Positions 17,685 through 34,850 are shown, counted from the first letter of the stretch. The stretch: 64,000 nucleotides of DNA from an uncultured Gemmatimonadales bacterium (GCA_963695555.1 CAVOGR010000001.1:1024001-1088000); one strand, 5' to 3'. The notes: a model not told the origin generated them from the sequence alone. A program made the numbers and translations.

Positions 17685-18177
17685 GCGACGCCTCTTCTGG
17701 GTTGTGCTGCTGCTGGTCGTGGTGCTCGATGCATCGACCAAACTGATCGCCGAGACATTCCTCCTCAGGACAGCGGCAACCCCAGTCGTAGGAGACTGGT
17801 TTCAGCTCCGCCTGGTGTATAACCAGGGGGCTGCCTTCGGGTTGCACGTGGGTCCATACTCTCGCTGGATCTTCTTCGCGGTCGCCGTTATAGCCGTCAT
17901 CGTGTTGCTGCGGATGTCCCGCCAGGGCGCCAGCGGTGACTGGTTCCGCCAGGGTGCCTTGGGCCTGGTGGCCGGCGGGGCAGCCGGCAATCTCATCGAT
18001 CGTATCCGAAGCGCCCGCGGTGTCGTGGATTTCCTCGATGTCGGCATCGGCACCCTGCGGTGGCCCACATTCAACGTCGCCGACATCGCCGTGAGTCTCG
18101 GTGCCATCGCCTTGGCCATCTCCCTCTGGCGGGAAGACGCTCGCCGGGCCCAGCCGGAGTCCGCCAGCGTCTCGTAA
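17668..18177 (+). CDS. lspA: Lipoprotein signal peptidase II
   Basis: NQGAAFG, GNLIDR, VVDF, FNVAD. Confidence 0.95.
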   Translation: MASGAERRLFWVVLLLVVVLDASTKLIAETFLLRTAATPVVGDWFQLRLVYNQGAAFGLHVGPYSRWIFFAVAVIAVIVLLRMSRQGASGDWFRQGALGLVAGGAAGNLIDRIRSARGVVDFLDVGIGTLRWPTFNVADIAVSLGAIALAISLWREDARRAQPESASVS

Positions 18178-18217
18178 CCCGCCTGCCCCCGCCGGCTCGT
18201 CCGGCGTCCACCTGTCG

Positions 18218-19204
18218 GTGCTCGTCGCGACGACGGAACGGCTCGACCGGTTCCTTGCTGATCAACTTGGCCTCTCCCGGACCCGTGCGGCTCGGCTCGT
18301 CGCCGGAGGCCATGTGTCCGTGGACGGGGTTCGCGCACGCGCGTCGCGCCGGTTGATCCGCGGGGAGCAGGTCACGGTGGAGGTTGCCGAGTCCGAGCCC
18401 CTGACAACGCTCAAGCCGGCGTCGATTCCCCTCACGGTGGTGTACGAAGACGAGGCGCTGGCGGTCATCGATAAGCCCGCCGGACTCGTCGTCCACCCTG
18501 CGCCTGGACATTGGGACGATACGTTGCTCAACGCATTGGTGGCGCGCGGGACGCCGTTGGCCGGTGGGGCGGAGGGCCGCCCCGGCATCGTGCATCGCCT
18601 GGATCGGGACACGTCGGGCCTCATGCTCGTGGCCAAGACGGAACAGGCACACCGGCGCTTGTCGAAGGCGTTGGCCTCCCGCCGGGTCTCCCGTTGCTAC
18701 GCGGCGATGACCTGGGGGCACCTGACCCAAAGCCCTACCACCATCGATGGCCCCATCGCTCGACATCCGGAGGATCGGAAGCGCATGACGGTGCTTGCCG
18801 GGGGCCGGTCGGCGCAGACCACCGCATGGGTCGTCGCACGCTACGGCCCCGTCGAACTGCTCCGCGTTGAACTCGGGACGGGCCGAACCCACCAGATCCG
18901 GGTCCACCTCAGCTACATCGGGCATCCGATCGTGGGTGACCCGGTCTACGGTGGTGGCGGAAGCCGGCGCATCTCGGGCCCCGATCGGAAGACCGCGGAG
19001 GCTATCGAGCGAGCGGCGCCACGCCAGGCACTCCACGCGGCGCTGCTCGGCTTCCGGCATCCGCTGACCGATGAGGAACTCGTGTTCACGTCCGAGTGGC
19101 CGGTCGATCTGAGGCCCGCGCTCGATGTGGCGGCAGATGACGCAAGTCTGGTTGCTGAAAGAGAACCGCTTCGGTATCTTCGTTTCTTCAATAGAGATGG
19201 CTAG
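18218..19204 (+). CDS. RluA/RluD-family pseudouridine synthase with S4 domain (start uncertain)
   Basis: ERLDRFL S4 domain, DKPAGLVVHP, HRLDRDTSG, GRTHQIRVH. Confidence 0.92.
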   Translation: MLVATTERLDRFLADQLGLSRTRAARLVAGGHVSVDGVRARASRRLIRGEQVTVEVAESEPLTTLKPASIPLTVVYEDEALAVIDKPAGLVVHPAPGHWDDTLLNALVARGTPLAGGAEGRPGIVHRLDRDTSGLMLVAKTEQAHRRLSKALASRRVSRCYAAMTWGHLTQSPTTIDGPIARHPEDRKRMTVLAGGRSAQTTAWVVARYGPVELLRVELGTGRTHQIRVHLSYIGHPIVGDPVYGGGGSRRISGPDRKTAEAIERAAPRQALHAALLGFRHPLTDEELVFTSEWPVDLRPALDVAADDASLVAEREPLRYLRFFNRDG

Positions 19205-19625
19205 TTCCGACCCGATGCGTGTGCTCGTCTTTCAGGTTGGAGACCTGGCATGCGGGATACCCGCCGAGTGGGTTCGCGAGGTCCTCCCGGCAGCCACGGC
19301 GACGCGAATCCCCGGTGCACACCCGGTCGTGGACGGCCTGGTCAACGTCCGCGGCAGGATTCTCACTGTGATCGACGGGCACCGCCTACTCAACCGAGCA
19401 CCGCTGCCCGAGCAAGAGGGGGTCACCATCATGGTGGACCTCGCCGGACACTCGTACGGTCTGCGGGTCAGCCAAGTGGACGATCTGTACGAAGTACGCG
19501 AGCAGGACCTCGAAGCGGCCACCGATGCGGCCGCAGGGCACGGTCATGTCGTGCAGGTCGAGGATGGCCCGCAGTTCGTTCTTCTCGGCATCGAATCCCT
19601 CCTGGCGCCGGTTGCCGGGACGTGA
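19197..19625 (+). CDS. cheW: Chemotaxis adaptor CheW
   Basis: VLVFQVG...VREV, TRIPGA..VVDGLVNVRGRILTVID. Confidence 0.85.
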   Translation: MASSDPMRVLVFQVGDLACGIPAEWVREVLPAATATRIPGAHPVVDGLVNVRGRILTVIDGHRLLNRAPLPEQEGVTIMVDLAGHSYGLRVSQVDDLYEVREQDLEAATDAAAGHGHVVQVEDGPQFVLLGIESLLAPVAGT

Positions 19626-19686
19626 CCAACGACCGGGTTCCAGCGTTGTTTCCGTTGCAGTGTCCCGTTCTCCGTGGAGGCAGTCT

Positions 19687-20049
19687 GTGAGCCACACCAT
19701 CCTCGTGTGCGATGACGCGATCTTCATGCGGACGATGATCGGCGATATCCTCACCGGAGCCGGGTATGAGGTCGTCGGCGAGGCGGAGACCGGCGTCCAA
19801 GCGGTGGAGCAGTACTCTCGGCTGAAGCCCGATCTCGTCACGATGGACATCGTCATGCCCGAAATGGGGGGGATCGACGCCGTTCGCGAGATCCGGCGCC
19901 TGGACCCCGACGCCAAGATCCTGATGTGCAGCGCTATGGGACAACAGGCACTCGTGGTCGAGGCGATCCAAGCCGGAGCCAAGGACTTTGTCGTCAAGCC
20001 ATTCCAGCCGTCCCGTGTGCTCGAGGCCGTTCAGCGCGTGTTGGGGTGA
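19687..20049 (+). CDS. cheY: Single-domain response regulator CheY (Bacillus/Thermotoga-like)
   Basis: DDAIFMR, PDLVTMDIVMP, MCSAMGQ, FVVKPF; SD GGAGG before the GTG. Confidence 0.92.
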   Translation: MSHTILVCDDAIFMRTMIGDILTGAGYEVVGEAETGVQAVEQYSRLKPDLVTMDIVMPEMGGIDAVREIRRLDPDAKILMCSAMGQQALVVEAIQAGAKDFVVKPFQPSRVLEAVQRVLG

Positions 20050-20052
20050 GTC

Positions 20053-21918
20053 ATGGACCGTGCCCGGTATACGGACTTGTTCCTGACGGAGGGTCGCGAG
20101 CATCTCGTGACATGCGCCCACCTTCTGCTCGAATTGGAGCAGGCACCCCGTGAGCTGGAACCGGTCCATGGCCTCTTCCGTGCCATGCATACGCTCAAGG
20201 GAATGGCAGCCACGATGGGGTATTCGCAAGTCACCGATCTGTCCCACCAGATGGAAACCGTGCTCGACGCGGTGCGTCAGGGAGAGCGCCGGGTAAACCG
20301 CCCGCTCATCGATGTTCTTCTCGAGACGGTGGATGCGCTGACGGCGGGTATCGAAACCGCTGTTGCAGGCCAGGACGCCGAGTTGGATTTTCGGGACCTC
20401 CTGGCCCGGCTGAACAAGAGGCCGCGCACGCGCAAACGGGTATCGGGCGATGCCGTGATACCCGAGACGAAGCCATCGCCTGCCGGTATGTGGGTCGAGG
20501 TCGTGATCGATCCGGCCGCTCCGATGCGCGGAGGCCGAGCGGCGGTGCTTCTCCGCGAGGCCGAAGCACTTGGCGCCGTCAGCACAGTCACGCCCTCAGC
20601 CAGCGAACTCGAGCGCGAGTCCTTCACGGGCCAATTTGGGTTCCATTTGGCGTCGGACGCCGCGCCGGCAGCTATTGCGACGCGGCTGCGAACCGTTGGT
20701 GACGTGCTCGAAGTCACGTGTGTTCCCCGTTCACCGGGGAGCCGGACGCCAGGCCCCGCCGAACGGGACGCAGCCAAGCGGTCGACACCGACTGTTCGCG
20801 TCGATCGCCGCCGGCTGGATGCCCTGATGAATCAGATCGGTGAACTCGTCGTGACCAAGAACCGGCTGGCATCGCTGGCGGCCGCCGGCGGTGGGGAGTT
20901 CTCGGCGGCCATTGATAGGATGGCCCGTTTGGTGTCGGAGATGCAGGCAGAGGTCATGTTGGCCCGATTGACTCCGGTTGCGGAGGTTGTCGATCGGTTC
21001 CCTCGGATGGTGCGGGACTTGTCGCGCGTAGTGGGCAAAGAAGTGTCGCTCAACGTGGAGGGGCGCCACATCGAGGTCGATCGCTCGATCCTGGAACAAA
21101 TCGGCGAGCCGCTGCTTCACCTCCTCCGCAACGCTATGGATCACGGCATCGAGTCAGTGGAGGCTCGAGTGAAGGCGGGGAAGCCGCGCGCGGGACAGTT
21201 ATCGCTCATTGCGGCGCGCGAACGCAATAGCGTGACGTTCGAAGTGCGCGATGACGGTGCAGGAATCGACCGCGCGGCGATCCTGGAGAAGGCCAGGCGA
21301 GAGGGATCCGTGGCTGAGCCCGTGACCTCGTTGACGGACGAACAACTGCTCGAGGTGCTTGCACGCCCCGGCTTCAGTACGGCCGAGCGGGTGACGAGCG
21401 TGTCGGGGCGCGGTGTCGGTGTGGATGTGGTCCTCACGCGCATTCGGGCGTTAGGGGGGTCGGTCGAGATTCGATCGGAGGTCGGCCACGGAACGTCGGT
21501 AACCTTGCGGCTTCCACTCACGGTCGTCCTGTTGCGTGCCCTCCTGGCCCGGGTCGGGCAGGAACGGTATGTGATTCCGGTGACCCATGTCGCGGAAACG
21601 GTGTTCCTCGACTCGCGGAGCGCCACGACCCTCGACGGGCGGCAGGCGCTCACTCTGCGCGATCAAGTTATTCCCACGGTGCGGCTGCGCGATCTGGCAG
21701 GATTTCCCAACGAGCCCACCCCGGCACGGCAACCGTGCGTGGTGTTCGAGGTCGGTTCGCGGCGCACCGCCTTGGTGGTCGATGCCCTCCTCGGCCAGGA
21801 GGAGATCGTGGTCGAGCCCTTCGAGCCACCGAGTGGCACGCCGGCAGTGTTTAGCGGAGCAACCATCCTATCGGACGGAGTACCGTCCCTGATTCTCGAC
21901 GCCGCAGCCGTGGTATAA
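20053..21918 (+). CDS. cheA: Chemotaxis histidine kinase CheA (P1-P2-P3-P4-P5)
   Basis: FRAMHTLKG (His46), HLLRNAMDHG, DDGAG, SGRGVG, C-terminal CheW-like domain. Confidence 0.95.
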   Translation: MDRARYTDLFLTEGREHLVTCAHLLLELEQAPRELEPVHGLFRAMHTLKGMAATMGYSQVTDLSHQMETVLDAVRQGERRVNRPLIDVLLETVDALTAGIETAVAGQDAELDFRDLLARLNKRPRTRKRVSGDAVIPETKPSPAGMWVEVVIDPAAPMRGGRAAVLLREAEALGAVSTVTPSASELERESFTGQFGFHLASDAAPAAIATRLRTVGDVLEVTCVPRSPGSRTPGPAERDAAKRSTPTVRVDRRRLDALMNQIGELVVTKNRLASLAAAGGGEFSAAIDRMARLVSEMQAEVMLARLTPVAEVVDRFPRMVRDLSRVVGKEVSLNVEGRHIEVDRSILEQIGEPLLHLLRNAMDHGIESVEARVKAGKPRAGQLSLIAARERNSVTFEVRDDGAGIDRAAILEKARREGSVAEPVTSLTDEQLLEVLARPGFSTAERVTSVSGRGVGVDVVLTRIRALGGSVEIRSEVGHGTSVTLRLPLTVVLLRALLARVGQERYVIPVTHVAETVFLDSRSATTLDGRQALTLRDQVIPTVRLRDLAGFPNEPTPARQPCVVFEVGSRRTALVVDALLGQEEIVVEPFEPPSGTPAVFSGATILSDGVPSLILDAAAVV

Positions 21919-21927
21919 GGAGGCCTG

Positions 21928-22548
21928 ATGGCGGATCTGCGACAGCTCACGGATCTGGAAATCGACGCGCTACGTGAGGTTGCCAGCATCGGAGCCGGCC
22001 ACGCCGCGACGGCACTGTCGCAAATGATTGAGCGCACCGTCATGATCAGTGTGCCGACGGTGCGCGTTGTCCCGCTCGAGGAGGTCGGGCAGCTCGTAGG
22101 ACGCCCGGACGACATCGTAGCCGCCGTGTTGATGCACATGATGGGCGATCTCACGGGGCGCACCCTCCTGGTCTTTCCCGAGAGCGCCGCCAAGCAGCTC
22201 TGCGACATCTTGTTGCGACGAACCGGCGGGTCCACCCTGACATTCGCCGTCATGGAACAATCGGGTCTCAAGGAGGTCGGGAACATCCTCAGCAGCGCCT
22301 ATTTCAACGCGCTGAGCGATTTTATGGGCATGATGCTCATGCCATCGATTCCCAGCTTGGTGATTGACTATTCCGCGGCAGTGTTGACCAGCACCACCTT
22401 GAATTTTGGGCACGCGCGTGATTCCGTCCTGTGTGTGGAGACCGACCTCAGGGTGCGAGATTCCGGGGAAAAGGTGACGGGCCACTTCATGCTCATGCCG
22501 GATCTCCCGTCCTTGCAGGCCATCTTCGACGCCGTCCGCCTTGCGTAG
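21928..22548 (+). CDS. cheC: CheY-P phosphatase CheC
   Basis: DALREVASIGAGHAATALS and SGLKEVGNIL repeats. Confidence 0.9.
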   Translation: MADLRQLTDLEIDALREVASIGAGHAATALSQMIERTVMISVPTVRVVPLEEVGQLVGRPDDIVAAVLMHMMGDLTGRTLLVFPESAAKQLCDILLRRTGGSTLTFAVMEQSGLKEVGNILSSAYFNALSDFMGMMLMPSIPSLVIDYSAAVLTSTTLNFGHARDSVLCVETDLRVRDSGEKVTGHFMLMPDLPSLQAIFDAVRLA

Positions 22549-22551
22549 CGC

Positions 22552-25269
22552 ATGGATGTTTCTGCGCTGTCCGACCGCGACCTCTCCATCCTCCGCGCCT
22601 TCGCGTCGCGGGTCGATCCATCCGATGCGGGCGGCCACAACAATCTGGGCGTGCTGTATTTTCGCAAAGGCCTGATTCCGGAAGCCATCGCCCAGTTCAC
22701 TCACGCGCTCGAACTCGATCCTCGAATGCAGGTGGCGCAGGACAATCTGCGCCTGGCGTACCACGGCACCGGATACTACGATCGCCGAGTCACCGAACTC
22801 CGGGAACATCTGCGCCGCGAACCGGAGGACCGGGACGCCCGGTGGGAGTTGGGCAAGGTGTACGCCTCGTTGAGACAGTACGATGCGGCCGCGGCCGAAT
22901 TCGAAGCCTTGCTCGCTCGGCATCCGTACGACGTGCGCGCGGTCGTGCAGCTTGGCCTGTGTGAAAAGGCGCGCGGCAACATTCCCCGGGCCGAGGAGTG
23001 GTTCAGCCGGGCGTGTCGGCTCGATCCCGAGAGTCCGGTGGCACGGTTCTACCTCGGTGAGGCTCTCTACAACCGGGGGCTGAACGAGCAAGCCTTGGTC
23101 GAACTGTCGCAGTCGGTTAGCCTGAATTCCGATAACGCCGAGGCCCAATACATTCTCGGCTTCGTCTATGGCGATCTCGGCCGGCATGAGGAGGCGCGGC
23201 GTGCGACCCGCCGGGCCATCGAGCTGAACCCGACCCTTGGCCGCGCGCATGCCAACTTGTCGCTCCGCCCTGACGAGGGCAGCGAGGCGGGCCGGTCCGC
23301 TGCCGCACCGGGTGACGCGAACGACCTTGCGGTTGCCGAGAACACGGCGCTTGCCCACTACAATTTGGGACTGGCCTTCCGCCAAAAAGGATACCATGCG
23401 GAGGCCCTCCGCGAGTATCGGCTCGCCCTCGAACACGGGGAAGAGCGCCAGCTCGTCCTCCAAGCCATGGCCGAGGTCCACCTGCTCAAGCGCGACCTGA
23501 GCGCCGCGCTCGAATTGTACGACCGGTTGGTGGTGGATTATCCGGACTCTCCAAAGCTCTGGAATGAACGAGGCGTCTGCCTCCAACAGGCCGGCCGCCG
23601 AGAGGCCGCCCTCGAGTCCTATCAGAGCGCCGTCGGTACGGACGAGACCTACGCCCTCGCCTGGAACAACCTCGGCGTGGCCCAGGCCCAGGTGCCCGAC
23701 TTCGATGCCGCGTCCGACGCCTTCCGGGCGGCGATCCGCCATAAGTCGGATCTTCTCGCCGCGCGGCTCAACCTCGCACTGCTGCTCTTTCAGCGTCGCC
23801 GTTTCCAGCTCGCGCTGGAGGCCTACCGGCATGCGCTGGCGGACGATCCGGACAATGCGGTCGCCTGGAACGGTGTGGGCCTGATTCTCATGGAATTGAA
23901 GCGATACGCCGACGCCAAGAATGCTTTCGCCAGAGCCGTCGAGACAGACCCCGAGCACGCCCCGGCCCACTATAACCTGAGCTTCGTCTTGAGCCAGCTC
24001 GGCGATTTCGACGGTGCGCTGCGCGAAACCAAACATGCGCTCGAATTGGAATCGTACTATGTACCTCAGCGGTACGATTTGACGATCGACCTCCAGTACG
24101 AGCATACAACCATTTCTGTGGCCCCGGTGCTCTCGGGCGACGAAGTCGCGGGTGAATTGCCGGACGACTTCGTCTTCGACGAGCGATTACTCGACGATCT
24201 CTTTGCGACGTTGGCGCCGGATGCGGATCAGTCGGATGACACGGCTCCCCAGCCGGGGCGTGAGCTGTCGCTCGCCCTGGCGCGCGACTACATCAGCAAA
24301 GGCCTCTTGGAGCTGGCCACGGCCGAACTGAATCGAGCGCGCCGGCGGGGCGCTTCCGCTGGCCAAGTGGCCGCGCTGTTAGGCGACATTTTTGCCAGAC
24401 GAGGGCTGCACGGCGAGGCACTGGAACGCTACCGCGAGGCGATCGACCTGGATCACCGCGATCTGGACGCCCGGGTTGGCGAGGTGCAGAGCCTCCTCGC
24501 CCTCGATCGTCTTGGTGAAGCGGCGCAGTCAGCGTCCGATCTCGAACCCATGGCAGCCGGAAGCGTCGACGCCTTGATGGTCTGCGCCAAGGTGCGCGTG
24601 CGCGTGGGGGAGCTGGTCCCGGCCCTCGATCTGCTCAAGGCGGCGCAGGCCTCCGCCCCGGAACGGGGTGAACTCTACCAACTGCAAGCCCAAGCAGCTG
24701 TGAAACTCGGCGACCTGGAAGCGGCCAGCGACGCATACCGGCACGCGCTCGCGCTGGACCCCAACCTGGTCATGGTGTGGCATGAGGTCGGCCAGTTGGA
24801 AGAGGCCCGACGCGACTGGACCGCGGCACGGGCGGCTTATGCGCAGGCGCTGGATCTGCTCCCCACCTTCATGGACGCGACGCTGGCACTCGCGGACGGC
24901 ATGCGTCGGCACGAATCGCCGCGTCAAGCGGTGAGCTATTTGGTCGAAGTCCTGGCCAGCGACCCCTATGAGTTCGAGGCCCTGGTGCTGCTCGGCCGCA
25001 GCCTGCTCGACGACGGCCGCCCGGATCGTGCCATCGAGGCATTCGATCGCGTCCTCAGGTTTGTGCCAGATCATGCCGACGCGTTGTATTTTCGAGGGCT
25101 CGCGTTGGAGCGGCAGCGGCGATTGGCAGAGGCCGTGGAATCCTGGCACCAGGCCATCCAATCCAATCCCGCCGGCCAGTACGCCCAGGCTGCCCGCCTC
25201 AGGATGCGGTCGGCCCGGGACCTCTCCGAAATCTTCAAGGTGCCGAGTGGAGTGAACGGTGGCGATTGA
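22552..25269 (+). CDS. Large tetratricopeptide-repeat protein (905 aa)
   Basis: Many TPR consensus units (e.g. HNNLGVLY...A..QF..ALELDP; AWNNLG; AHYNL); acidic central linker; no signal peptide. Confidence 0.9.
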   Translation: MDVSALSDRDLSILRAFASRVDPSDAGGHNNLGVLYFRKGLIPEAIAQFTHALELDPRMQVAQDNLRLAYHGTGYYDRRVTELREHLRREPEDRDARWELGKVYASLRQYDAAAAEFEALLARHPYDVRAVVQLGLCEKARGNIPRAEEWFSRACRLDPESPVARFYLGEALYNRGLNEQALVELSQSVSLNSDNAEAQYILGFVYGDLGRHEEARRATRRAIELNPTLGRAHANLSLRPDEGSEAGRSAAAPGDANDLAVAENTALAHYNLGLAFRQKGYHAEALREYRLALEHGEERQLVLQAMAEVHLLKRDLSAALELYDRLVVDYPDSPKLWNERGVCLQQAGRREAALESYQSAVGTDETYALAWNNLGVAQAQVPDFDAASDAFRAAIRHKSDLLAARLNLALLLFQRRRFQLALEAYRHALADDPDNAVAWNGVGLILMELKRYADAKNAFARAVETDPEHAPAHYNLSFVLSQLGDFDGALRETKHALELESYYVPQRYDLTIDLQYEHTTISVAPVLSGDEVAGELPDDFVFDERLLDDLFATLAPDADQSDDTAPQPGRELSLALARDYISKGLLELATAELNRARRRGASAGQVAALLGDIFARRGLHGEALERYREAIDLDHRDLDARVGEVQSLLALDRLGEAAQSASDLEPMAAGSVDALMVCAKVRVRVGELVPALDLLKAAQASAPERGELYQLQAQAAVKLGDLEAASDAYRHALALDPNLVMVWHEVGQLEEARRDWTAARAAYAQALDLLPTFMDATLALADGMRRHESPRQAVSYLVEVLASDPYEFEALVLLGRSLLDDGRPDRAIEAFDRVLRFVPDHADALYFRGLALERQRRLAEAVESWHQAIQSNPAGQYAQAARLRMRSARDLSEIFKVPSGVNGGD

Positions 25270-26407
25270 AGGGCCGCTAAAAGAACTCCACATCGACGAC
25301 GTCTTCCAGCTCATGGACTTGGGCCGAAAGACCGGCGTCCTGCACGTCACGTCCGAGCTGCGGGAAAACGCAGGCACCGTGTTCTTCGAGAACGGGTGGG
25401 TGGTGGGTGCCATGATCGCGACCAATCCGCATCCACTCGGGGAGCTGTTGATCCGGACGGGGAAAGTGGCCGAAGAAGACGTCGTCCGTGCACGGACCCT
25501 TCAGACAAGCCGCCCAGGCCGGCGCTTGGGGGAGCTGTTAGTGGAGATCGGAGCGATTTCCCGTCGGGAACTCGACCGACACATCCGTGCGCAGGTCGAG
25601 GAAGTCGTCTTCGAGTTGATGAGTTGGTCCGAGGGATACTTCCGCTTCGAGGAGGGAGAGCCGGGGCAGACTCCGGCCGAAGCCTCGTTTCGAATCGCAC
25701 CGGAGGCGCTGCTCATGGAGGCGGCGCGACGAATCGATGAATGGAGTCGGATCGTCGCCAAGATTCCGCATCAGGGGGTAGTGCCGGGGCTCAATCCGGA
25801 ACAGGCCACCGCCACCGCCGCGCTGGAACTGGTCCCGTTCGAGTGGGAAGTGCTTGCGGCCGTCGATGGAACGGCCACGGTTCGCGACGTGGCCCGGCGG
25901 GTTCGACAGCCCGAGTTCGACGTCGCCAAGACGCTCTTTGGACTCGCGTCGGCCGGCATCATCATCATCCGCGATGCGACGACCGACGGCGGCAACGGTG
26001 CCGGCCGGGGAGTGGAGGTGCTGTCGGCCCAGGCCGATGACCACCTCCAGGCTGGGGACCTGGCCGGAGCCCACCTCGTGGCCCAGGACGCCGTCCTCGC
26101 CTATCCCGACGACGGGGAGGCCTTTCTCGTCCTCGCCCGGGTGTCCCTTGCCAACGGGCGATTCGGCGAAGCCCTGGATGCCGCTCATCGGGCGCTTGCC
26201 CTCCAAGGTCAAACGGGGCCTGGACTTCGGCTGCTCGGTCTGGCTCTTGCAGGGGCAGGTCGTTTTGGGGACGCCTTGGGAGCGTGGGACCGCTGGAAGG
26301 GCTTGGAGACCATGGATCCAGCCGAACGAAGACATTGGGACACGATCGATCGCCTGGAGGATGCGGCGAAGCTCTTGAATAATGCGGTCCGTGGGCGCCA
26401 TGAGTGA
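25259..26407 (+). CDS. DUF4388 (PatA-N-like) protein with MshEN-like repeats and C-terminal TPRs
   Basis: MAIEGPLKEL..DDVFQL...KTGVL; LMSWSEGYFRF; LLMEAARRIDEW. Confidence 0.8.
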   Translation: MAIEGPLKELHIDDVFQLMDLGRKTGVLHVTSELRENAGTVFFENGWVVGAMIATNPHPLGELLIRTGKVAEEDVVRARTLQTSRPGRRLGELLVEIGAISRRELDRHIRAQVEEVVFELMSWSEGYFRFEEGEPGQTPAEASFRIAPEALLMEAARRIDEWSRIVAKIPHQGVVPGLNPEQATATAALELVPFEWEVLAAVDGTATVRDVARRVRQPEFDVAKTLFGLASAGIIIIRDATTDGGNGAGRGVEVLSAQADDHLQAGDLAGAHLVAQDAVLAYPDDGEAFLVLARVSLANGRFGEALDAAHRALALQGQTGPGLRLLGLALAGAGRFGDALGAWDRWKGLETMDPAERRHWDTIDRLEDAAKLLNNAVRGRHE

Positions 26408-27248
26408 CAGTATCCGGGCCATGACGGCCCAGCTGGTCAGCGATCCCGCCAGCATGATCTTCCTGCCGCTGGGAGAGGCCCTGCGCCAGCGCGGACAGCT
26501 CGACGCCGCCGAGAAAGTGGCGCTGGCTGGCCTTGGGCGCTACTCCGAATCGGCCGATGCGCACGACCTGTACGCCAGGATTCTCGGGGATCGCGGTCAA
26601 CTCGAATTGGCATTCGATGAGTGGGACATCGCCCTCCGGCTGGAGCCGGACCACGTCGGGGCGCACAAAGGCATCGGGTTCCTGTATTTCGTGGCTGGCG
26701 AGCTCGACCGGGCATTGGCCCACCTCGAGACGGCCGCCCGGAAGCTGCCGGACGATGATGGGGCCCAAACAGCCCTGGCTCGGGTCAAGGAGGCTCTCGC
26801 TCGCCGAGCGGCGGCAGGGAATGGGGCCGGACGGGAGACAGATACGGCGGTGCTGACTGAGGAGCAGGCGGTGGTACCCGGTGCCGACCCATCCCGGCTG
26901 TTCCTGGGCTTGGAAGGAGCCGAGGACGGCCTCCTGCTTCTCGATACGAGGGGACTTCGCCTCGGTGGTGGATTGACCAGTCCCGAGGGCGACGACGTAG
27001 CCGATGCCGTCTCGGCCCACCTCGCGGGCGTGTCGCAGGAAGCTTCCCGCACTGCCCGGCTACTCGGGCTGGGGGCGTGGATCAGCCTGGCTGCAGAGTC
27101 GCCGGATGGTCATCTGTTCGTGGTGGCTCCAACGCCGGAGACTCTGTTGCTTCTCGTTCGGGAGCAGAGCGTTCCCTTGGGACGCCTGGGCGTGGTTGCC
27201 GACCATGCGGCCGGGGTCGCGCGGGCTTGGCTCGAGGGATTGCAGTGA
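26400..27248 (+). CDS. TPR protein with C-terminal roadblock/LC7-like domain
   Basis: N-terminal TPRs (FLPLGEALR, AHKGIGFLY); C-terminal LLLLDTRGL...AVSAHLAGVS...LGLG...LLLLV..SVPLG roadblock pattern. Confidence 0.7.
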   Translation: MSDSIRAMTAQLVSDPASMIFLPLGEALRQRGQLDAAEKVALAGLGRYSESADAHDLYARILGDRGQLELAFDEWDIALRLEPDHVGAHKGIGFLYFVAGELDRALAHLETAARKLPDDDGAQTALARVKEALARRAAAGNGAGRETDTAVLTEEQAVVPGADPSRLFLGLEGAEDGLLLLDTRGLRLGGGLTSPEGDDVADAVSAHLAGVSQEASRTARLLGLGAWISLAAESPDGHLFVVAPTPETLLLLVREQSVPLGRLGVVADHAAGVARAWLEGLQ

Positions 27249-27595
27249 TGCCGGAGTTCGCAACTGCACTCGACTTGATCACCCGGGTCCACGGCGTCCG
27301 CGGCGCCATGCTGGTGTCAGTCTCAGACGGACTCGTTGTCGCCGAATCGTCCATGGACGGTGTGGACGGCGCGCCGGTCGCGGCGCTCACCGCAAGCCTT
27401 GCCGGCCGGCTGCGGCGCACCACTGAAGCGGCGGGACGACGACTGCCGACCTTCATCCACCTCCGGGCGGCAACAGGGACCGTGCTCGCGGTGCCGTCCA
27501 ACGACGACCTGCTCGTCGTGACGATTGGCGCTCCGGACATCAATGTCGGCCTGGCTCGGTTGGAAATGCTCCACGTCGCGGAGCGAGGGATTTGA
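27248..27595 (+). CDS. Roadblock/LC7 domain protein (MglC-like)
   Basis: GVRGAMLVS.SDGLVV, VAALTASL, INVGLARLEM. Confidence 0.85.
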   Translation: MPEFATALDLITRVHGVRGAMLVSVSDGLVVAESSMDGVDGAPVAALTASLAGRLRRTTEAAGRRLPTFIHLRAATGTVLAVPSNDDLLVVTIGAPDINVGLARLEMLHVAERGI

Positions 27596-28056
27596 TGCGA
27601 GCCGTTGAGCCATGGGTGGAAGGTCCGCTCGCGGCGTTCCTGGATGAGTCGGCTGCGCGGCTCACGCTGTTGATGACCTCGGCTGGCCAGGTACTGGCCC
27701 AGCATGGGTTCACGCGCGCCTTCGACGTCATGTCTGCCGCGGCGTTGGGCGCTGGGATCATGGCGTCGACCGACGAGCTTGCGCGTCTGATGGACGCGCC
27801 GCCCTTTCGCGCCTTGGCGCACCAGGGAGTCCATCACGGCTTGTTCCTTTCCGGCTTCGACACGCCCCAAGGACGGTGGATCGGACTCGTGGTCTTCGGG
27901 CCTGAGAGTTCACTCGGGCTGGTTCAGCTGTTCTTCCAGCGCCTCGTGGCGGACTTGGCCAAGCAGGCCCCGACCGAAGCTCCAAGCAACCGGGTGTTGG
28001 GATCAGATTTCGAGGACGAGCTCAACGCCAGCCTGCGAACCCTTTTCGGTCAGTAG
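27595..28056 (+). CDS. mglB: MglB-like roadblock protein (putative GAP of MglA)
   Basis: AAALGAGIMAST.ELARL...F..LAHQG and SLGLV resemble MglB; lies directly upstream of mglA. Confidence 0.75.
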   Translation: MRAVEPWVEGPLAAFLDESAARLTLLMTSAGQVLAQHGFTRAFDVMSAAALGAGIMASTDELARLMDAPPFRALAHQGVHHGLFLSGFDTPQGRWIGLVVFGPESSLGLVQLFFQRLVADLAKQAPTEAPSNRVLGSDFEDELNASLRTLFGQ

Positions 28057-28059
28057 CAT

Positions 28060-28662
28060 ATGTCGCTTGTCAACTTCACGTCCCGCGAGATCACCTGTAA
28101 GATCGTCTATTACGGACCAGGCCGATCCGGCAAGACGAGCAATCTTCAGTACATCTATGGTCGGGTTCCGGAAGCGCGCCGGGGCCGCATGGTGTCGCTC
28201 GCCACCAAAGGCGACCGCACGCTGTTTTTCGATTTTCTCCCGCTCGAGCTCGGGACAATCTCAGGATTCGTCACACGATTCCAGTTGTACACCGTGCCCG
28301 GGCAGGTGTACTACAATGCGACCCGGAAGCTGGTGTTGCAGGGTGCAGACGGTATCGTTTTTGTGGCCGACAGCCAAGCCCGGCGATTCGACGATAACCT
28401 CGAGAGCCTCCAGAACCTGCAAGAGAATTTGCTCGCGCACGGTGTCGATATTCGGGAATTGCCCCTCGTCTACCAATACAACAAGCAGGATCTCCCTGCG
28501 GATCTCATCCTCGGGCCGGACGAACTCGATGATGCCTTGAATTTTCGAGCGGTCCAGAGCTTCGGCGCCGATTGTCTGAGCGGGAACGGCGTGTTTGAGA
28601 CATTGCGGGGCATTTCAGAGCTCGTGTTGAAGCGCCTGGCCGCGGGGAGCCGGGTTGCGTGA
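28060..28662 (+). CDS. mglA: MglA small Ras-like GTPase
   Basis: KIVYYGPGRSGKTSNL, DRTLFFDFLP, LYTVPGQ, YNKQDLP. Confidence 0.95.
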   Translation: MSLVNFTSREITCKIVYYGPGRSGKTSNLQYIYGRVPEARRGRMVSLATKGDRTLFFDFLPLELGTISGFVTRFQLYTVPGQVYYNATRKLVLQGADGIVFVADSQARRFDDNLESLQNLQENLLAHGVDIRELPLVYQYNKQDLPADLILGPDELDDALNFRAVQSFGADCLSGNGVFETLRGISELVLKRLAAGSRVA

Positions 28663-30611
28663 TCTCGCTGCTCAAGCCCTCGTGTCGCTTCACCACGTTG
28701 GTGGTGGCACCCACCAACCAACTTGCGGTGACCGCGGCCCGGGCCGTGGCGGACTCTCCGGGCCGCATCTATAACCCGCTCTACATTTACGGTGGGCCAG
28801 GACTGGGCAAGACCCACCTGCTGATGGCCATTGGGCACTCGGTGTTGGACATCGACCCCTCGTGCACCGTGGAATACCTGAGCATCGAGGACTTCGCCTC
28901 TGCCTGGCCCACTGCGAGGAATGCCGGCGAAGAGGAAGCCTACCGCCGGCACTATGTCGAGGCCGAGGTGCTGCTGCTGGATGACATTCACCTCCTCGCC
29001 TATCGTCGCGACCTGCAGCTGGAAATTCTCCGGGTTCTCGACAGTGTGCTCGAGCGGAATCACCAGGTCGTCATGGCATCTGATCGGGCGCCGAACCGGA
29101 TCGACGGATTGGACGAGCGTCTGGCACGGCGTTGTGCCGCTGGCTTGGTGACCGATGTAGCTACCCCGGCGCCCGAGACCCGGCTCGAGGTCGTGCGCCG
29201 CAGGGTGCAGGAGCGCGGCGCGGTGTTCCACCCGGACATCCTCGAACTGCTGGCCGGCGCCGGCCAATCGGATCTCCGACAGCTGCTCGCTCTCGTGGAC
29301 AAGTTTCAAGAGGTGCAGCGGCGCACGCATCTGCCGCTCACCGTCGAGGCGGCCCGGGGACTCCTCAACGACATGGGCCTGGCAGAGGCCACCGGTCCAG
29401 CCGGTGACGGTCAAAGTCTTCGGCCTCACGCCGACGAGTTCGGAACCTTTCTTAGCGATGTGACCACCACCGTGGCCGGACAGCTCGAAGCGTGGCGAAG
29501 TCGAGTGGCCGAGGCCATCCTCCGGTGGGAGGGGGAAGGATTCCGCACTCGCCGCCTCGAGGCGTTGCTCCAGGCCGATCTTCCAGCGGATCCCAACGCG
29601 ATTCTCGAATCTTTCACGGCCGATGTGGAACGGCTGCGCGGTCTCGAATCAGAAGCCCAGACCGTATCGCCCGACCTGGTCGGGTCGCCGTTGTTCCGGG
29701 ATCCGGACCAGGTGGCCGCCGCCGCCGCCTTGGTCGAGCATGCGAGGCAAGGCCGGCATCCGCTTCCGGCGCCTTCTCGCATGTGGCGCCTAGAGGACCT
29801 CGTCGAGGCGCCGGGCAATCTGGACGCGCTCAGCTCGGCGTGGCGTGTCATAGACCAACCGGGAACCCGTCACAACCCGCTCGCTGTCGTTGCGCCGAGC
29901 GGGTGTGGGAAGACCCATGTGCTCCATGGCATCGCCAACAAGCTCGCGGAGGCACCCAACGCGACGATCGCATGTCTCACCGCCAGCGACTTCATCGCGG
30001 ACCTCGAGGCGGCGCGCGAGGCCAACCGGCTCTCGGCCTGGCAATCACGGTATCGCGGGGTAACCGGGCTCCTGATCGACGACATCCACCGGTGGGCCGA
30101 CCACCCGCCGCTCGGCGCCGAGCTGGTGGAGCTGCTCGACGCACTGCTCGAGGCCCGCGCCCAACTGGTGGTCAGCTCGGTCGTTCCCCTGCCGCAGTTG
30201 GCGCTGGACCGGGGCATCATGGACCGCCTCCAGGGCGGCCTCGTTGTGGCCCTCGCTCCTCCAGACCGTGACATCCGGTCCCGCGTCGTCGAGCGACTCC
30301 TGGCCGCCAAGCTCAGTCTGGTGGATCCCGAGCTGACATCCTACCTGGCGAATCGACCGGCGGAGTCGGTGCGAAGTCTGCAAGGCCTGGTGCACCGGTT
30401 GCTCAACAACGCCGAGGTCCAAGGGAAAACGCCGACGGTGGCGTTTGCCCGCGAGCTCCTGGAGGGAATGCCGCAGGCGCCGCCCGCCCGCGAGCAGAGA
30501 ACCCGGCTGAGCGGTGTTGTGGTGCCTGTGGCCGGCGGCCTCCGGAGCCGCGAGAAAATGGTCTGGCATTGGCCCGATGCCGGTGACCGGGTAGTGGAGG
30601 AGTGGAGCTGA
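28659..30611 (+). CDS. Protein with two tandem DnaA/Hda-like AAA+ modules and no DNA-binding domain IV
   Basis: NPLYIYGGPGLGKTHL / LLLDDIH and NPLAVVAPSGCGKTHV / LLIDDIH. Confidence 0.85.
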   Translation: MISLLKPSCRFTTLVVAPTNQLAVTAARAVADSPGRIYNPLYIYGGPGLGKTHLLMAIGHSVLDIDPSCTVEYLSIEDFASAWPTARNAGEEEAYRRHYVEAEVLLLDDIHLLAYRRDLQLEILRVLDSVLERNHQVVMASDRAPNRIDGLDERLARRCAAGLVTDVATPAPETRLEVVRRRVQERGAVFHPDILELLAGAGQSDLRQLLALVDKFQEVQRRTHLPLTVEAARGLLNDMGLAEATGPAGDGQSLRPHADEFGTFLSDVTTTVAGQLEAWRSRVAEAILRWEGEGFRTRRLEALLQADLPADPNAILESFTADVERLRGLESEAQTVSPDLVGSPLFRDPDQVAAAAALVEHARQGRHPLPAPSRMWRLEDLVEAPGNLDALSSAWRVIDQPGTRHNPLAVVAPSGCGKTHVLHGIANKLAEAPNATIACLTASDFIADLEAAREANRLSAWQSRYRGVTGLLIDDIHRWADHPPLGAELVELLDALLEARAQLVVSSVVPLPQLALDRGIMDRLQGGLVVALAPPDRDIRSRVVERLLAAKLSLVDPELTSYLANRPAESVRSLQGLVHRLLNNAEVQGKTPTVAFARELLEGMPQAPPAREQRTRLSGVVVPVAGGLRSREKMVWHWPDAGDRVVEEWS

Positions 30612-32230
30612 TGGCCATCAAGGGCAGCCTCAAAGAGGCCAGTCTTCCCGATGTGATTCAGCTTCTGGCCATGGGCCAGAAGACGGGCTGCTTGGCCGTC
30701 GCCCACCGCCACAATTTCGGCTACGTCTACTTCCGAAACGGCCGCATCATCTACGCCTCCATTGTCAACCGGCGCGATCGGCTCGGCGATATCCTGGTGA
30801 ACAGCGGTCGAATCTCCCCCGAGCAATTGGCGCAAGCCATCGACCTGCAAGGCACATTCGATGACAAGAAGCTCGGCCAGATATTGGTCGATACCGGAGC
30901 GATTTCGCGCGAGGAATTGGTGCAGTACGTGGCCTTACAAATCGAGGAGGCCGTCTATTTCCTCTTCACGTGGAACTCGGGAACATTCAATTTCGAAGTC
31001 GATGTGCAGCCTGCAAGTCAGGATGTGCTCGTCTCCATCGCCCCGGAAACATTGCTGCTCGAGGGCGCCAGGCGGGTCGACGAGTGGAGTCTCATCCAAC
31101 ACAAGATCCCGAGCTTCGATCTCATCTTCGAAGTCCGCGAGAGCCGGATCGCCGCGTCGACAGCCACGCTCTCTCCAGAACAAGAGCGGTTGCTCCCCCT
31201 TCTCGACGGACAGCGCGACGTCAGCCAATTGATCGACGCGGCCGGCATGGGTGAATTCGAGGTGGGCAAGGCACTCTTCGGGCTGATCACGGCCGGCTTC
31301 GTTCACCGTGTCGGCACGTCGGCCACGAGTGAAGTCAGCCGGGCCAACGAGGGGCGGATCGAGGAGCACCGCAATCTCGGAATCGCCTTCTACCGGGCCA
31401 GCATGTTGGAGGAGGCCGAGAGGGAATTCCGGCGCGTGGCGGAACTGCGCCCCGCCGATGGGAACGCACCTTTTCATCTCGGACTCATTGCTGTCAAGCA
31501 CGGACGGTGGGAGGAAGCGATCGCGATGTTCCAACGTGCGGTGGAGAAGGGAGGACCGCGTGCGAGTGCGCTCCACAACTTGGCATTCGCCATGGAGCGA
31601 CTCGGGCGGCTGACCGAAGCCGAAGCCACCTATGCGGCGGCCGTCGACAGGGCGCGGGACAATCCGCGCATCATGCTGGGGTGGGGGATCTCGGCACTGC
31701 TGCGCGAAGACCACGCGCTGGCGTCCGCGCGCCTGATCCGGGCGCGGGAACTCATGGGCGAGGCGGATCCGCCCGCTACCTGGTACTGGGCGGCGACACT
31801 GGCGCATGCCGGGTCCGGCAACCAGGCCGCGGCATTGGAGGTGGCTCAGGCAGGAGTGGCGTCCTATCCGGCGAGCGCCGTGTTGAACAACAATCTCGCG
31901 GTGCTCTTGGAGTTGAACGGGGACATCGCCGGCGCCGAGACGCAGCTCGACCGCGCGTTTACCGAGGAGCCCACGCTGCCGCAGATCTCGAAGAACATGG
32001 CGGATTTGTTGTATCGGGCCGGCAAATACGACGAGGCCGGTGCGGCCTACGAGCGAGTCATCAAACTGAATCCCGATCTGGGTGACGATCTCTATTTCAA
32101 ATTGGGGAACATTTCGTTCAAGCGACGGGACTTCGCGCAGGCCAAGGCCTATTGGCAGCGGGCTACCGAACTCAATGCTGGGCACGAACTCGCGCGGTCG
32201 AATCTCGAAATGCTGGCATCGGTATCGTGA
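30611..32230 (+). CDS. DUF4388 protein with tandem MshEN-like motifs and TPRs
   Basis: MAIKGSLKEASLPDVIQLL; RLGDILVNSG...; LLLEGARRVDEW; C-terminal TPRs. Confidence 0.82.
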   Translation: MAIKGSLKEASLPDVIQLLAMGQKTGCLAVAHRHNFGYVYFRNGRIIYASIVNRRDRLGDILVNSGRISPEQLAQAIDLQGTFDDKKLGQILVDTGAISREELVQYVALQIEEAVYFLFTWNSGTFNFEVDVQPASQDVLVSIAPETLLLEGARRVDEWSLIQHKIPSFDLIFEVRESRIAASTATLSPEQERLLPLLDGQRDVSQLIDAAGMGEFEVGKALFGLITAGFVHRVGTSATSEVSRANEGRIEEHRNLGIAFYRASMLEEAEREFRRVAELRPADGNAPFHLGLIAVKHGRWEEAIAMFQRAVEKGGPRASALHNLAFAMERLGRLTEAEATYAAAVDRARDNPRIMLGWGISALLREDHALASARLIRARELMGEADPPATWYWAATLAHAGSGNQAAALEVAQAGVASYPASAVLNNNLAVLLELNGDIAGAETQLDRAFTEEPTLPQISKNMADLLYRAGKYDEAGAAYERVIKLNPDLGDDLYFKLGNISFKRRDFAQAKAYWQRATELNAGHELARSNLEMLASVS

Positions 32231-32243
32231 TCCGCGACGACGC

Positions 32244-32735
32244 ATGACGGATCCACACGAGGTCCTCGTCGACATCGCCGAGTATCGGGTGGGGGCCGGT
32301 GTCGACATCCTCGTTGCATTGGGACTCAGCAGCTGCGTGGCCGTGGCGGTGCACGATCCCGTGACCAACATTGGAGGTCTCGCTCACATTCTTCTTCCGT
32401 CGCCGTCGCTCACGGGGGAGCGTGGCAAGCCCGGCAAATTCCCCCAAACCGCCATCCCCCTCCTCGTCGAGGGCATGGTTGAGGCCGGGGCCGGACGGCG
32501 GCGGCTCCACGCGCGGCTGATCGGCGGGGCAAGCATGTTTGGTGCCTTGCAGCAGGGTCGGACCATGCCAATGGGAGAGCGCAATCTGGCCGCGGCGCGG
32601 GCCGTATTGCGGGCGGAGCGAATTCCGGTGAGTGGTGAGGCAACGGGCGGCGACTTCGGCCGGTCGCTTCGTTTTTCGGTCGATGGCGGCCGCATCGAGA
32701 TCCGCGCCGTGGGTCGCGATCTCACTGCCCTGTGA
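32244..32735 (+). CDS. cheD: Chemoreceptor glutamine deamidase CheD
   Basis: LGLSSCVAV, GGLAHILLP, ARLIGGASMF, GERN, TGGDFGRS. Confidence 0.9.
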   Translation: MTDPHEVLVDIAEYRVGAGVDILVALGLSSCVAVAVHDPVTNIGGLAHILLPSPSLTGERGKPGKFPQTAIPLLVEGMVEAGAGRRRLHARLIGGASMFGALQQGRTMPMGERNLAAARAVLRAERIPVSGEATGGDFGRSLRFSVDGGRIEIRAVGRDLTAL

Positions 32736-32909
32736 CGTGACATTGACTCTCGTAGCGGACGATGTCGCGCCGAGCTGGACCAGTGAGGGTTCATCGCCCG
32801 GCGGATGCCTCACGCCGCGCGCATGCGGTCGACGACGGCTCGAAGCAGGGGAAACGAATACTCGCGTGTCGGCAATCCACCGACAGTTCGAACAGCACGG
32901 AGTAAGCCG

Positions 32910-33782
32910 ATGACGGAAGAGTGGCTGGCGCAGTTGCGGACCCAGGGAGCCGAGATCGCCGCGCGGTTGGAGCAGGCGAGCTCACCCGGGGAACGGGAGG
33001 CGCTCAAGCGCGACATCATTGCGTATTTCAAGCTGGTCGATGGGGCGCTCCTCGAGTTGACCGATGTCAAGGAGTCGATCCGTGGGCTGGTGGAGCGGTA
33101 CAAACAGGTGGCAGGCACGCCGGACCCTCGGCAGAGCCCGCACTTCTCCGGAGACCGGCCGGCAATTCGGGCTGATCACTTGGGCGCGTCCACCTACATC
33201 GACAAGGGATGGAACCTCATTGCCTTGGGCGACCACGAAGGTGCCATTCAGGCACTGACGAAGGCGCTCAGTCTCTCGCCCGAAGACTCGCAGGCACGCT
33301 CGCTGCTCGGCTGGGCGCAGATGCTCAGCGAGACCTACGACGACGCGCTCGCCACCTTCTCCAAGGTGTTGTCGAAGGAGCCCGCAAATTCGTTGGCTCG
33401 CATCAATGTGGGCTACGTCTGCCTCAAGAAGGGAATTTTTGGCGAAGCCATCGAGCATTTGTCCAAAGCCATCCGCCTGGACAACGATCGCAAGGCGACG
33501 CTCTACGCGCACTATTACCTTGGGTTGGTATACTTAGACCGCGAAATGTACGAGGACGCCGTCACCTTCTTTCGCAAGACCATCGATCTCGGGCCAAACT
33601 TGATCGAGGCCCACTACGAGCTCGGACGGGCACTTTGGTTTTCGGACGACCAGGAAGCCGCCGTCGCTGCGTGGGAAACGGGCGTCGCCACCAACCGGTT
33701 CAATCCATGGGGGAAGCGGTGTCAGGACATGCTCGATCTCGTCCGAGCGGGAGGTGATGTCCCTCGCACGCCTTCCTCCTAG
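32910..33782 (+). CDS. Coiled-coil plus TPR protein
   Basis: N-terminal heptad helix followed by about 5 TPR units; SD GGAG upstream. Confidence 0.85.
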   Translation: MTEEWLAQLRTQGAEIAARLEQASSPGEREALKRDIIAYFKLVDGALLELTDVKESIRGLVERYKQVAGTPDPRQSPHFSGDRPAIRADHLGASTYIDKGWNLIALGDHEGAIQALTKALSLSPEDSQARSLLGWAQMLSETYDDALATFSKVLSKEPANSLARINVGYVCLKKGIFGEAIEHLSKAIRLDNDRKATLYAHYYLGLVYLDREMYEDAVTFFRKTIDLGPNLIEAHYELGRALWFSDDQEAAVAAWETGVATNRFNPWGKRCQDMLDLVRAGGDVPRTPSS

Positions 33783-33850
33783 CTCTCGCCCTCGCCGCCG
33801 CGGTCCATCAACAACAGCCGAGCGCCGTCCAGGTCGGGCAGGTCACGGCG

Positions 33851-34648: not shown

Positions 34649-34850
34649 CCCGGATCGAAGCACCTCCTGTCCATGATAGGTGACATCGCGATTGAGAGCC
34701 GCCCTGAGATTGCCGCTCAAGTCGAGGGGTGACAAGCGGATGTGCCTCTCTTCCCGGCTGGCACGTCCGTTGCCTTTGAGGGGTGTGAGATGGTTGGGCC
34801 TCGCGGAATGGTGGGATCGGGAACGCGGCCGGCGGGAGGCTGTCGCCTGG

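Follow-up and report, generated by a model that had tools for sequence, protein, structure and literature searches.

We examined a 64,000-nt stretch of DNA (hereafter the window; G+C 66%) from an uncultured Gemmatimonadales bacterium (GCA_963695555.1, CAVOGR010000001.1:1024001-1088000), in which an unbroken series of long open reading frames (ORFs) runs along the + strand from 19125 to 33782. Fourteen co-oriented genes within this series (19197-33782) encode the parts of a chemosensory pathway together with an MglA-family GTPase, Roadblock proteins, tetratricopeptide repeat (TPR) proteins, two PATAN (DUF4388) proteins and an ATPase with two DnaA-type modules, the expected domains being observed in order with Pfam (domain listing of the window proteins at E<=0.01) and NCBIfam (Table 1). 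The initial annotation had described 14 tightly packed genes in this order, and the description was borne out: 11 of the 13 junctions either overlap or leave a gap of no more than 13 nt when the starts judged likeliest are used. The wider junctions are cheW-cheY, where the choice of GTG gives 34 or 61 nt, and cheD-TPR, with 69 or 174 nt, and the start of cheW overlaps the stop of rluD by 8 nt. The longest ORFs of cheY, the Roadblock gene (172 aa), cheD and the last TPR gene are over-extended at their 5' ends.

Table 1. Genes of the cluster, with positions in the window and the matches on which each assignment rests.
Gene or product	Position	Strand	Matches and remarks
cheW, 142 aa	19197..19625	+	PF01584 CheW 84.8 bits; longer ORF from 19125
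cheY, single-domain response regulator	19687..20049	+	PF00072 105.8 bits; GGAGG precedes GTG 19687; alternative GTG 19660; longest ORF from 19525
cheA, 621 aa, five-domain	20053..21918	+	Hpt, P2, H-kinase_dim, HATPase_c, CheW (Pfam)
cheC, CheY-P phosphatase family	21928..22548	+	PF04509 54.7 bits; NF041093 CheC 178 bits, below cut-off 250
All-TPR protein, 905 aa (TPR905)	22552..25269	+	TPR families (Pfam)
PATAN (DUF4388) protein with MshEN-type insertion and C-terminal TPR, 382 aa	25259..26407	+	PF14332 114.7 bits (cut-off 25)
TPR protein with C-terminal Roadblock-like domain, 288 aa	26400..27248	+	TPR families; Robl_LC7 17.5 bits, below cut-off; kept in relatives
Roadblock/LC7 protein, 115 aa from ATG 27248	27248..27595	+	PF03259 38.9 bits; Robl_LC7 structures E 1.4e-4
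MglB-like Roadblock protein, 154 aa, probable GTPase-activating protein (GAP) of the cluster GTPase	27592..28056	+	phmmer E 1.1e-7 vs M. xanthus MglB chains
MglA-family small GTPase, 200 aa, cluster-specific paralogue	28060..28662	+	E 1.5e-69 vs M. xanthus MglA
Tandem DnaA domain III ATPase, 650 aa	28659..30611	+	Two stretches of PF00308 (Bac_DnaA); helical linker, conserved C-terminal motif
PATAN (DUF4388) protein, two stretches, tandem MshEN-type motif and ~290 aa of TPR, 542 aa	30602..32230	+	PF14332 133.1 bits (cut-off 25)
cheD, 163 aa from ATG 32244	32244..32735	+	PF03975 89.3 bits; sole 3' che gene remaining in the lineage
Terminal TPR protein, 290 aa from ATG 32910	32910..33782	+	TPR families

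The eight genes from TPR905 through the 542-aa PATAN gene form, together with the terminal TPR gene, a core that is conserved in loci from four families of the phylum Gemmatimonadota. Using the tandem ATPase (full-length, E<=1e-70) as a probe for the cluster in 301 sampled genomes, among which the unpublished genome G157 counts only as one of the 301, we observed it in 121 of the 125 genomes of the window's own family (f1), in about two thirds of those of a second family (f2), in all three genomes of f3 and in three of six of f4. Outside these carriers, ATPase matches reached only ~1e-35 to 1e-49, which is the level of true DnaA. Thirty-six loci from the four families were scored with the window proteins and four proteins of locus L047. 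These loci were not a random sample (20 were chosen for long contigs and good matches, nine because CheA had not been found, two because the ATPase had not been found, three from flagellated genomes with one CheA match, and two further loci came from a nearest-relative search with the ATPase, which gave four loci in all), and proportions among the 36 are not population frequencies. Both mglA and the 542-aa PATAN gene were present in all 36 loci, the tandem ATPase and mglB in 34 each, and among the 33 loci with a visible 5' side TPR905 was present in 30 (with a fragment in two) and cheA in 26. The order was constant, rluD-[che]-TPR905-PATAN-TPR/Roadblock-Roadblock-mglB-mglA-ATPase-PATAN-[che]-TPR-peptidase, and its recurrence for mglA and the 542-aa PATAN gene in 36 of 36 loci is far beyond chance. 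With loci from four families, this gene order is ancient.

The che genes of the window were found to be a trimmed version of a larger set. Relatives carry, 3' of the 542-aa PATAN gene, cheR (273 aa), cheD (162 aa), cheB (358 aa), two cheW genes (143 and 154 aa) and the TPR gene, and the ancestral layout is cheW-cheY-cheA-cheC / core / cheR-cheD-cheB-cheW-cheW / TPR. In the window and in its 97%-identical relative L012 the PATAN gene leads directly to cheD (a 13-nt gap in the window) and cheD directly to the TPR gene; a genome of the same genus (G153) retains cheR, cheB and one cheW. No match to CheR (PF01739) or CheB (PF01339) was observed in the window's own genome (87% complete), and no CheW domain was found there outside the cluster cheW and CheA. 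Two clean deletions have taken out methylation-based adaptation (cheR, cheB and two cheW genes) and spared cheD, whose sequence contains the conserved stretch with the Cys and His residues that we take to be catalytic. The initial annotation had treated the eight genes nested between cheC and cheD as one functional unit. A conserved unit tied to che genes across the order does exist, but the nesting itself results from a lineage-specific deletion, and since relatives hold cheR-cheD-cheB-cheW-cheW after the core, a partnership of cheC with cheD is not what brackets it.

What remains in this genome is CheA, CheW and CheY with chemoreceptors, the parts of a chemosensory pathway, and CheR/CheB methylation adaptation is missing from it. 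The best NCBIfam match of CheY is a CheY model (129 bits) and that of CheD a Thermotoga-type CheD model (134 bits), both scores lying under the cut-off of their models. Across eight f1 loci (L046, L048, L049, L050, L051, L052, L053 and L056) identity to the window proteins was 82-89% for CheY (aligned REC part), 78-91% for MglA and 49-55% for CheA.

Losses were also observed within the core. Two loci (L077 and L078) lack the tandem ATPase and cheD and keep the rest of the cluster. Little of TPR905 is left in L055 and L081, whose mglA is divergent (35-36% identical) and which have no che genes on the 3' side, and in L060 and L062 no Roadblock, mglB or cheR match was found. At L077 (16177-18299), which belongs to the same single lineage as L078, mglA is directly followed by the PATAN gene, and the MshEN-type insertion is wholly missing.

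The cluster GTPase belongs to the MglA family over its full length. Residues 1-197 align with residues 1-195 of Myxococcus xanthus MglA (E 1.5e-69, 237 bits), Thermus thermophilus MglA is matched at E 1.1e-66, and the P-loop, DRTLFFDF and TVPGQ stretches are identical to those of M. xanthus MglA in the alignment. Among 32 aligned rows of the cluster MglA, G19, G24, K25 and Q82 are invariant and R53 is kept in at least 90%. The identification as MglA made at the outset stands at the level of the family, but the gene is not the canonical MglA orthologue of its genome: a second MglA (224 aa, C1:845345-846022) scores 289 bits against the M. xanthus protein compared with 237 for the cluster copy. 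Most f1 and f2 genomes have two MglA matches, and genomes without the ATPase mostly have one, at ~1e-63. The closer MglA elsewhere and the two-copy pattern together identify the cluster GTPase as a dedicated paralogue. The Roadblock protein encoded next to it is MglB-like (phmmer E 1.1e-7 against MglB structures), with scores of 35.6 bits for NF052242 (cut-off 200) and 20.7 for Robl_LC7 (cut-off 23). TPR905 is a candidate scaffold or effector, for which a role like that of SgmX may be proposed.

Both PATAN proteins carry signs of an insertion of the MshEN type, a domain defined by a tandem 24-residue motif (PMC5013675). In the 542-aa protein two such motifs lie inside DUF4388, one at 60-83 and the other at 90-113, separated by six residues, while the 382-aa protein has one at 89-112 and a looser copy at about 60-83. 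The NCBIfam model NF053729, an MshE-related cyclic di-GMP (c-di-GMP) motif model with a cut-off of 38, gave 53.3 bits for the 542-aa protein and 34.0, just short, for the 382-aa protein. Residues 56-107 of the 542-aa protein also match T. thermophilus PilF (6f8l, E 3.2e-7), and its AlphaFold model (pLDDT 86.6) places four helices at 60-122 as an insertion in a beta-rich domain, followed by TPR. Using a near-strict pattern, both motifs were kept in 19 of 32 rows of 542-aa orthologues, one in seven and none in six. These motifs suggest that the two PATAN proteins are likely c-di-GMP sensors.

An unusual member of the cluster is the 650-aa ATPase. Its N-terminal half matches DnaA domain III (8bv3, E 1.1e-42; Foldseek TMt 0.95, root mean square deviation 1.5 A, 35% identity), and its C-terminal half matches Hda structures more weakly (E 3e-5). 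Neither domain I nor the DNA-binding domain IV was observed (Pfam at E<=0.01, with PDB matches covering domain III only), and in the model a second AAA+ module takes the place of domain IV (pLDDT 85), the relative placement of the two halves being uncertain at a pTM of 0.44. In all 29 rows compared, both halves keep the Walker A and B residues without change, and the helical linker and the C-terminal motif are also conserved. Foldseek searches with the model returned nothing but DnaA and generic AAA+ proteins of the double-ring kind, p97 among them, with no assignment for the linker domain. A prediction of the complex of the ATPase with MglA scored 0.47 (best of three controls 0.00). Overall, 116 of the 157 solved complexes and 2 of the 215 mismatched pairs attained the mark; at 0.60 or less, the range of this score, it was attained by just 18 of the 157 and by both passing mismatches. 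Contacts agreed between runs to at least 79%, with partner pLDDT of at least 77, and the predicted models lend weak support to a contact of the ATPase with MglA.

We rejected the 650-aa gene as the chromosomal dnaA, as it has no domain IV and another dnaA-like locus is present in the genome (C2:397803-398555). The protein passes the cut-off of the DnaA equivalog model TIGR00362 (349.2 vs 343.9 bits) through the sum of its two stretches, and relatives bear the public name 'chromosomal replication initiator protein DnaA' in some cases and 'DnaA/Hda family protein' in others. Public pipelines label the tandem ATPase as the replication initiator DnaA, which is a trap for annotation.

The genome (3.57 Mb, 14 contigs, 87% complete) contains a single CheA (one PF02895 match) and no FlhA match, and the pathway therefore cannot serve a flagellar motor here, in agreement with the initial suggestion of an output in place of, or besides, a flagellar motor. 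Among the f1 genomes FlhA was matched in 24 of 125 and the CheA dimerisation domain in 114, and 90 of the 101 without an FlhA match still had a CheA match. With CheA common and FlhA rare, the cluster pathway is kept without flagella. Sixteen of the 24 flagellated f1 genomes had at least two CheA matches, and the five flagellated relatives for which places are listed (G165, G122, G045, G257 and G010) have another CheA match at a distance of 10-23 kb from flhA. Two genes for methyl-accepting chemotaxis proteins (MCPs) were found in the genome, one GAF-MCP and one dCache MCP, both outside the cluster. A pilB-pilT-pilC string (PilB with MshEN and T2SSE domains in Pfam) was also found, near a PilS-like sensor kinase and a PilR-like sigma-54 response regulator (C7:618485-632089, L082). 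The GAF-MCP gene directly follows genes for a HEAT-repeat protein and an HD_5 (HD-GYP-like) protein (C5:150309-155768, L083:2309-7768); this adjacency makes a tie between the receptor and c-di-GMP turnover possible.

No description of this cluster was found in a literature search that covered neither subscription journals nor the first supplementary file of PMC4316618, and the statement that no characterised system has this composition holds as far as the literature found goes. The closest functional relative is the M. xanthus system of Frz, MglA/MglB/MglC, RomR-RomX, SgmX and PilB, which shares with the cluster a Che-type kinase with a response regulator of one domain, an MglA GTPase with a Roadblock GAP of the MglB type, further Roadblock proteins and one large TPR protein, as described in the accessible text of PMC11580455 and PMC4316618. 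There MglA recruits SgmX, a 14-TPR protein, which takes PilB to the pole, and two PATAN proteins appear in the STRING co-occurrence list of SgmX, according to the portions consulted of PMC11580455. In that system frz and mgl are unlinked according to the accessible part of PMC4316618, whereas here the parts lie in one gene string. The cluster differs further in having no RomR, RomX or FrzS-type gene in the Pfam listing, in adding the PATAN-MshEN proteins, the tandem DnaA-type ATPase, cheC and cheD, and in using a paralogue as its GTPase where the genome also has a canonical pair.

A second likeness is to the cyanobacterial Tax/Pix pathways, which have a Che-like pathway coupled to PATAN in common with the cluster and use PatA-type (PATAN-REC) regulators that bind PilB1/PilC. 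As far as the accessible text of 10.1101/2021.06.11.447907 goes, PATAN is the output domain in Synechocystis, binding PilB1 as well as PilC's N-terminal domain, and the PATAN domain contains a two-unit alpha-helical insertion resembling the N-terminus of pilus ATPases. In the cluster, by contrast, PATAN is fused to TPR rather than to a receiver, CheY is separate, and the set is enlarged by MglA, Roadblock proteins and the ATPase. Since the cluster PATAN proteins have no receiver, phosphorylation cannot act on them directly.

The core adjacency itself can be recognised in a survey of MglA by Wuichet and Sogaard-Andersen (2014, PMC4316618). The portion of the survey available to us places Group 1 MglA in Gemmatimonadetes, with occasional PATAN neighbours, and gives 'PATAN>MglA>-PATAN>' for GAU_1409 and 'MglB>MglA>' for GAU_1115 of Gemmatimonas aurantiaca, as well as '<PATAN<MglA<MglB<MglB' for Chloroflexus. 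The unnamed '-' gene in the GAU_1409 entry fits the tandem ATPase, and the order in L060 and L062 is consistent with that entry. For Myxococcus and Bdellovibrio the same portion has mglA encoded away from its partners. The table, in the part available, covers immediate neighbours only and does not describe the che bracket, the TPR genes or the ATPase, and the words CheA and CheW are absent from supplementary file 3. The actinobacterial conservon (CvnA kinase, CvnB Roadblock, CvnC, CvnD GTPase) likewise encodes as one signalling unit a histidine kinase together with a Roadblock protein and a GTPase of the MglA family, in the same portion of PMC4316618, but its kinase is a membrane sensor, not a CheA with chemoreceptors, its MglA group is different, and it has no PATAN protein, TPR scaffold or AAA+ protein. 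With DnaA and Hda each ATPase half shares the domain III fold and ATP motifs; the cluster protein departs from them in holding two domain III modules in one chain, with a conserved helical linker and a C-terminal motif, inside a signalling cluster.

We infer a chemosensory and c-di-GMP input to an MglA-type polarity switch for type IV pili, a reading that we consider on balance probable, if only just, and in which the pilus output is itself a proposal. Two orphan chemoreceptors would signal through CheW and CheA to CheY, and CheC together with CheD would reset the signal. Phosphorylated CheY (CheY~P) would act on the core, and c-di-GMP, bound by the PATAN proteins, would enter through them; both inputs would set the state or place of the dedicated MglA paralogue. 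The polar complex would then comprise MglA and its MglB-like GAP, the two further Roadblock proteins, the TPR scaffolds and the ATP-driven tandem ATPase, which would bind MglA, and the complex would direct the pilus motor. By analogy, Frz acts through MglA and SgmX on PilB in Myxococcus, and PATAN regulators act on PilB1/PilC in cyanobacteria. This genome has a reduced form of the system, from which methylation-based adaptation has been deleted. The theme, chemosensory control of MglA polarity, is a known one, and to it is added one component of unassigned role, the tandem ATPase.

Several observations weigh against a pilus switch under chemosensory control, and a first group of them concerns the output. 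PilT is found in 289 of the 301 phylum genomes, with or without the cluster, so that its co-occurrence is compatible with a pilus output and does not discriminate. The genome has another mglB-mglA pair outside the cluster (C1:844898-846022, L085:6613-8019), between dnaX-recR and pgsA-cinA; that pair could be what switches pilus polarity, and the cluster paralogue would then have another task. The cluster always adjoins the dcw region, with divIVA upstream. In an alternative reading the core would determine polarity in growth, budding or division, marking the pole or division site and perhaps linking replication to pole identity, with Che and c-di-GMP biasing the choice. Members of Gemmatimonas bud, the separate canonical MglAB pair would be available for motility, the ATPase consists of two DnaA oligomerisation modules, and the core persists without che genes. 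The site is fixed between yggS-divIVA-...-ileS-lspA-rluD and peptidase-TPR-mraW-ftsI-murE-murF-mraY, its downstream side being kept wherever loci reach it, and, according to the title of PMC7380572, PatA, with which the PATAN family was founded, has a part in heterocyst patterning and an interaction with the divisome. The neighbourhood may, however, be merely an inherited gene order, and no division protein is encoded within the cluster in the Pfam listing. PATAN, MshEN motifs, MglA and large TPR partners have all been linked experimentally to the pilus motor, and an input from chemoreceptors and CheA is typical of fast behavioural control. We regard a role in growth or division as unlikely, albeit one to be kept in mind.

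A second group of observations concerns the c-di-GMP input to the proposed pilus switch. The Pfam MshEN family (PF05157) gives no match to either PATAN protein at E<=0.01, and the motifs of L060 and L062 are degenerate, these two and L077 being among the rows in which no motif is kept. The label DUF4388-MshEN used from the beginning is thus carried by the tandem motif, the PilF match and the NF053729 score of the 542-aa protein, but not by PF05157, nor in full by the 382-aa protein, which lies under the NF053729 cut-off.

The remaining points against chemosensory control of the core concern the che genes. No result shows CheY contacting any core protein, and the best NCBIfam models of CheA, CheY, CheC and CheD are archaeal and Thermotoga-type, not of a pilus-type class. 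In six loci from three genera (L068, L069, L075 and L076; L071; L074) the che genes have been lost and the core and terminal TPR gene are whole, from which it follows that the core is autonomous and Che an optional accessory input. No MCP was found in three of five che-less genomes; the other two retain a pair of adjacent MCP genes. The survey of relatives accordingly gave a mixed answer on the proposed linkage of che and mgl: the two halves were never seen relocated apart in the 36 loci, but the che half is dispensable. Eight of the 24 flagellated f1 genomes have a single CheA match, and the cluster kinase may also serve flagella there.

These findings could also mean that the che genes represent an old pathway of flagellar type, connected with an unrelated MglA module only by a common transcription unit, and that in this non-flagellated lineage they persist as relics on course to be lost. 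A stepwise loss would suit such relics, running from the window, without cheR, cheB and two cheW genes, through the fragments left in L072 (cheW, cheY and pieces of cheC, cheR and cheB, with no cheA) and L073 (cheY, a shortened cheA and a partial cheC) to the six loci with none. Relics would hardly be expected, however, to keep CheA in 90 of 101 f1 genomes without FlhA, or CheY at 82-89% identity across eight f1 loci. The precise sparing of cheD while both its neighbours were excised, the che genes bracketing the core on both sides in four families, and the further CheA match near flhA in five flagellated relatives point the same way, and we judge this explanation very unlikely. In both decaying loci cheY is full length (66% identical in L072, 74% in L073), with cheA gone or shortened, and CheY may be the last che gene to go.

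Equally improbable, in our view, is that the tandem ATPase is a regulator of replication initiation, Hda-like or DnaA-capping, modulated by the rest of the cluster: the closeness of its N-terminal half to DnaA domain III, the Hda matches of its C-terminal half and the invariant ATP-binding motifs of both halves would fit, but no domain IV or I was detected, the gene is missing from L077 and L078, which otherwise keep the cluster, its place is always between mglA and a PATAN gene, and there is the weak predicted contact with MglA.

A more speculative proposal may be made for this ATPase, one that we offer as a long shot. It might be a nucleotide-gated polar hub, assembling with itself in an ATP-driven manner as DnaA filaments do, gated by MglA-GTP and c-di-GMP-bound PATAN, so marking one pole and coupling chemosensory input to chromosome replication or, beside the dcw genes, to an asymmetric division such as budding. 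If true, this would be a bacterial polarity mechanism built on the fold of a replication initiator.

Whichever output the cluster has, its composition bears on a wider question. The route from chemosensory signal to MglA is still traced indirectly in Myxococcus, where the genes are scattered, and here the parts lie in one operon-like string. Candidates for missing links in that route are the PATAN-MshEN adaptors, the extra Roadblock proteins, the TPR scaffolds and the double DnaA-type ATPase. The natural deletion series, from the full set to loci with no methylation arm, no che genes or no ATPase, reveals which parts depend on one another, and the GAU_1409 entry of the cultured G. aurantiaca fits the same core, which makes these ideas testable in culture.

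Transcription was examined in public metatranscriptomes, where a contig crossing two genes does not establish a single transcript. Library X1 covered all 30 bins of 16500-36000 at an even depth of ~4-14, flanks included, with contigs spanning several gene junctions, and X2, X4 and X5 gave short pieces only. With the coverage of X1 even over the flanks and DNA possible in such libraries, RNA is indistinguishable from DNA and no conclusion on co-transcription is drawn. A promoter and terminator scan was uninformative, with one promoter-like and 11 terminator-like sites compared with shuffle means of 2.0 and 9.8.

Upstream of the cluster lie ftsH, folP, a gene for a TMEM260-like transferase, yggS, divIVA, a phosphorylase gene, ileS, a dksA-type gene, lspA and rluD. 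The ileS gene is broken across three frames (14123-15253, 15049-16848 and 16484-17272), and contigs from two public runs are one base shorter than the window at 16588/16589; the one-base difference and the split of ileS indicate that the assembly probably has indel errors. Further split genes were observed elsewhere in the genome, for an aldehyde dehydrogenase (L082:10511-11942) and dnaX (L085:3465-5778). Downstream, a gene for a peptidase MA protein and one for a 571-aa TPR protein precede mraW-ftsI-murE-murF-mraY, and these two genes (33851-36976 in the window) were observed between the cluster and mraW in every locus reaching that far.

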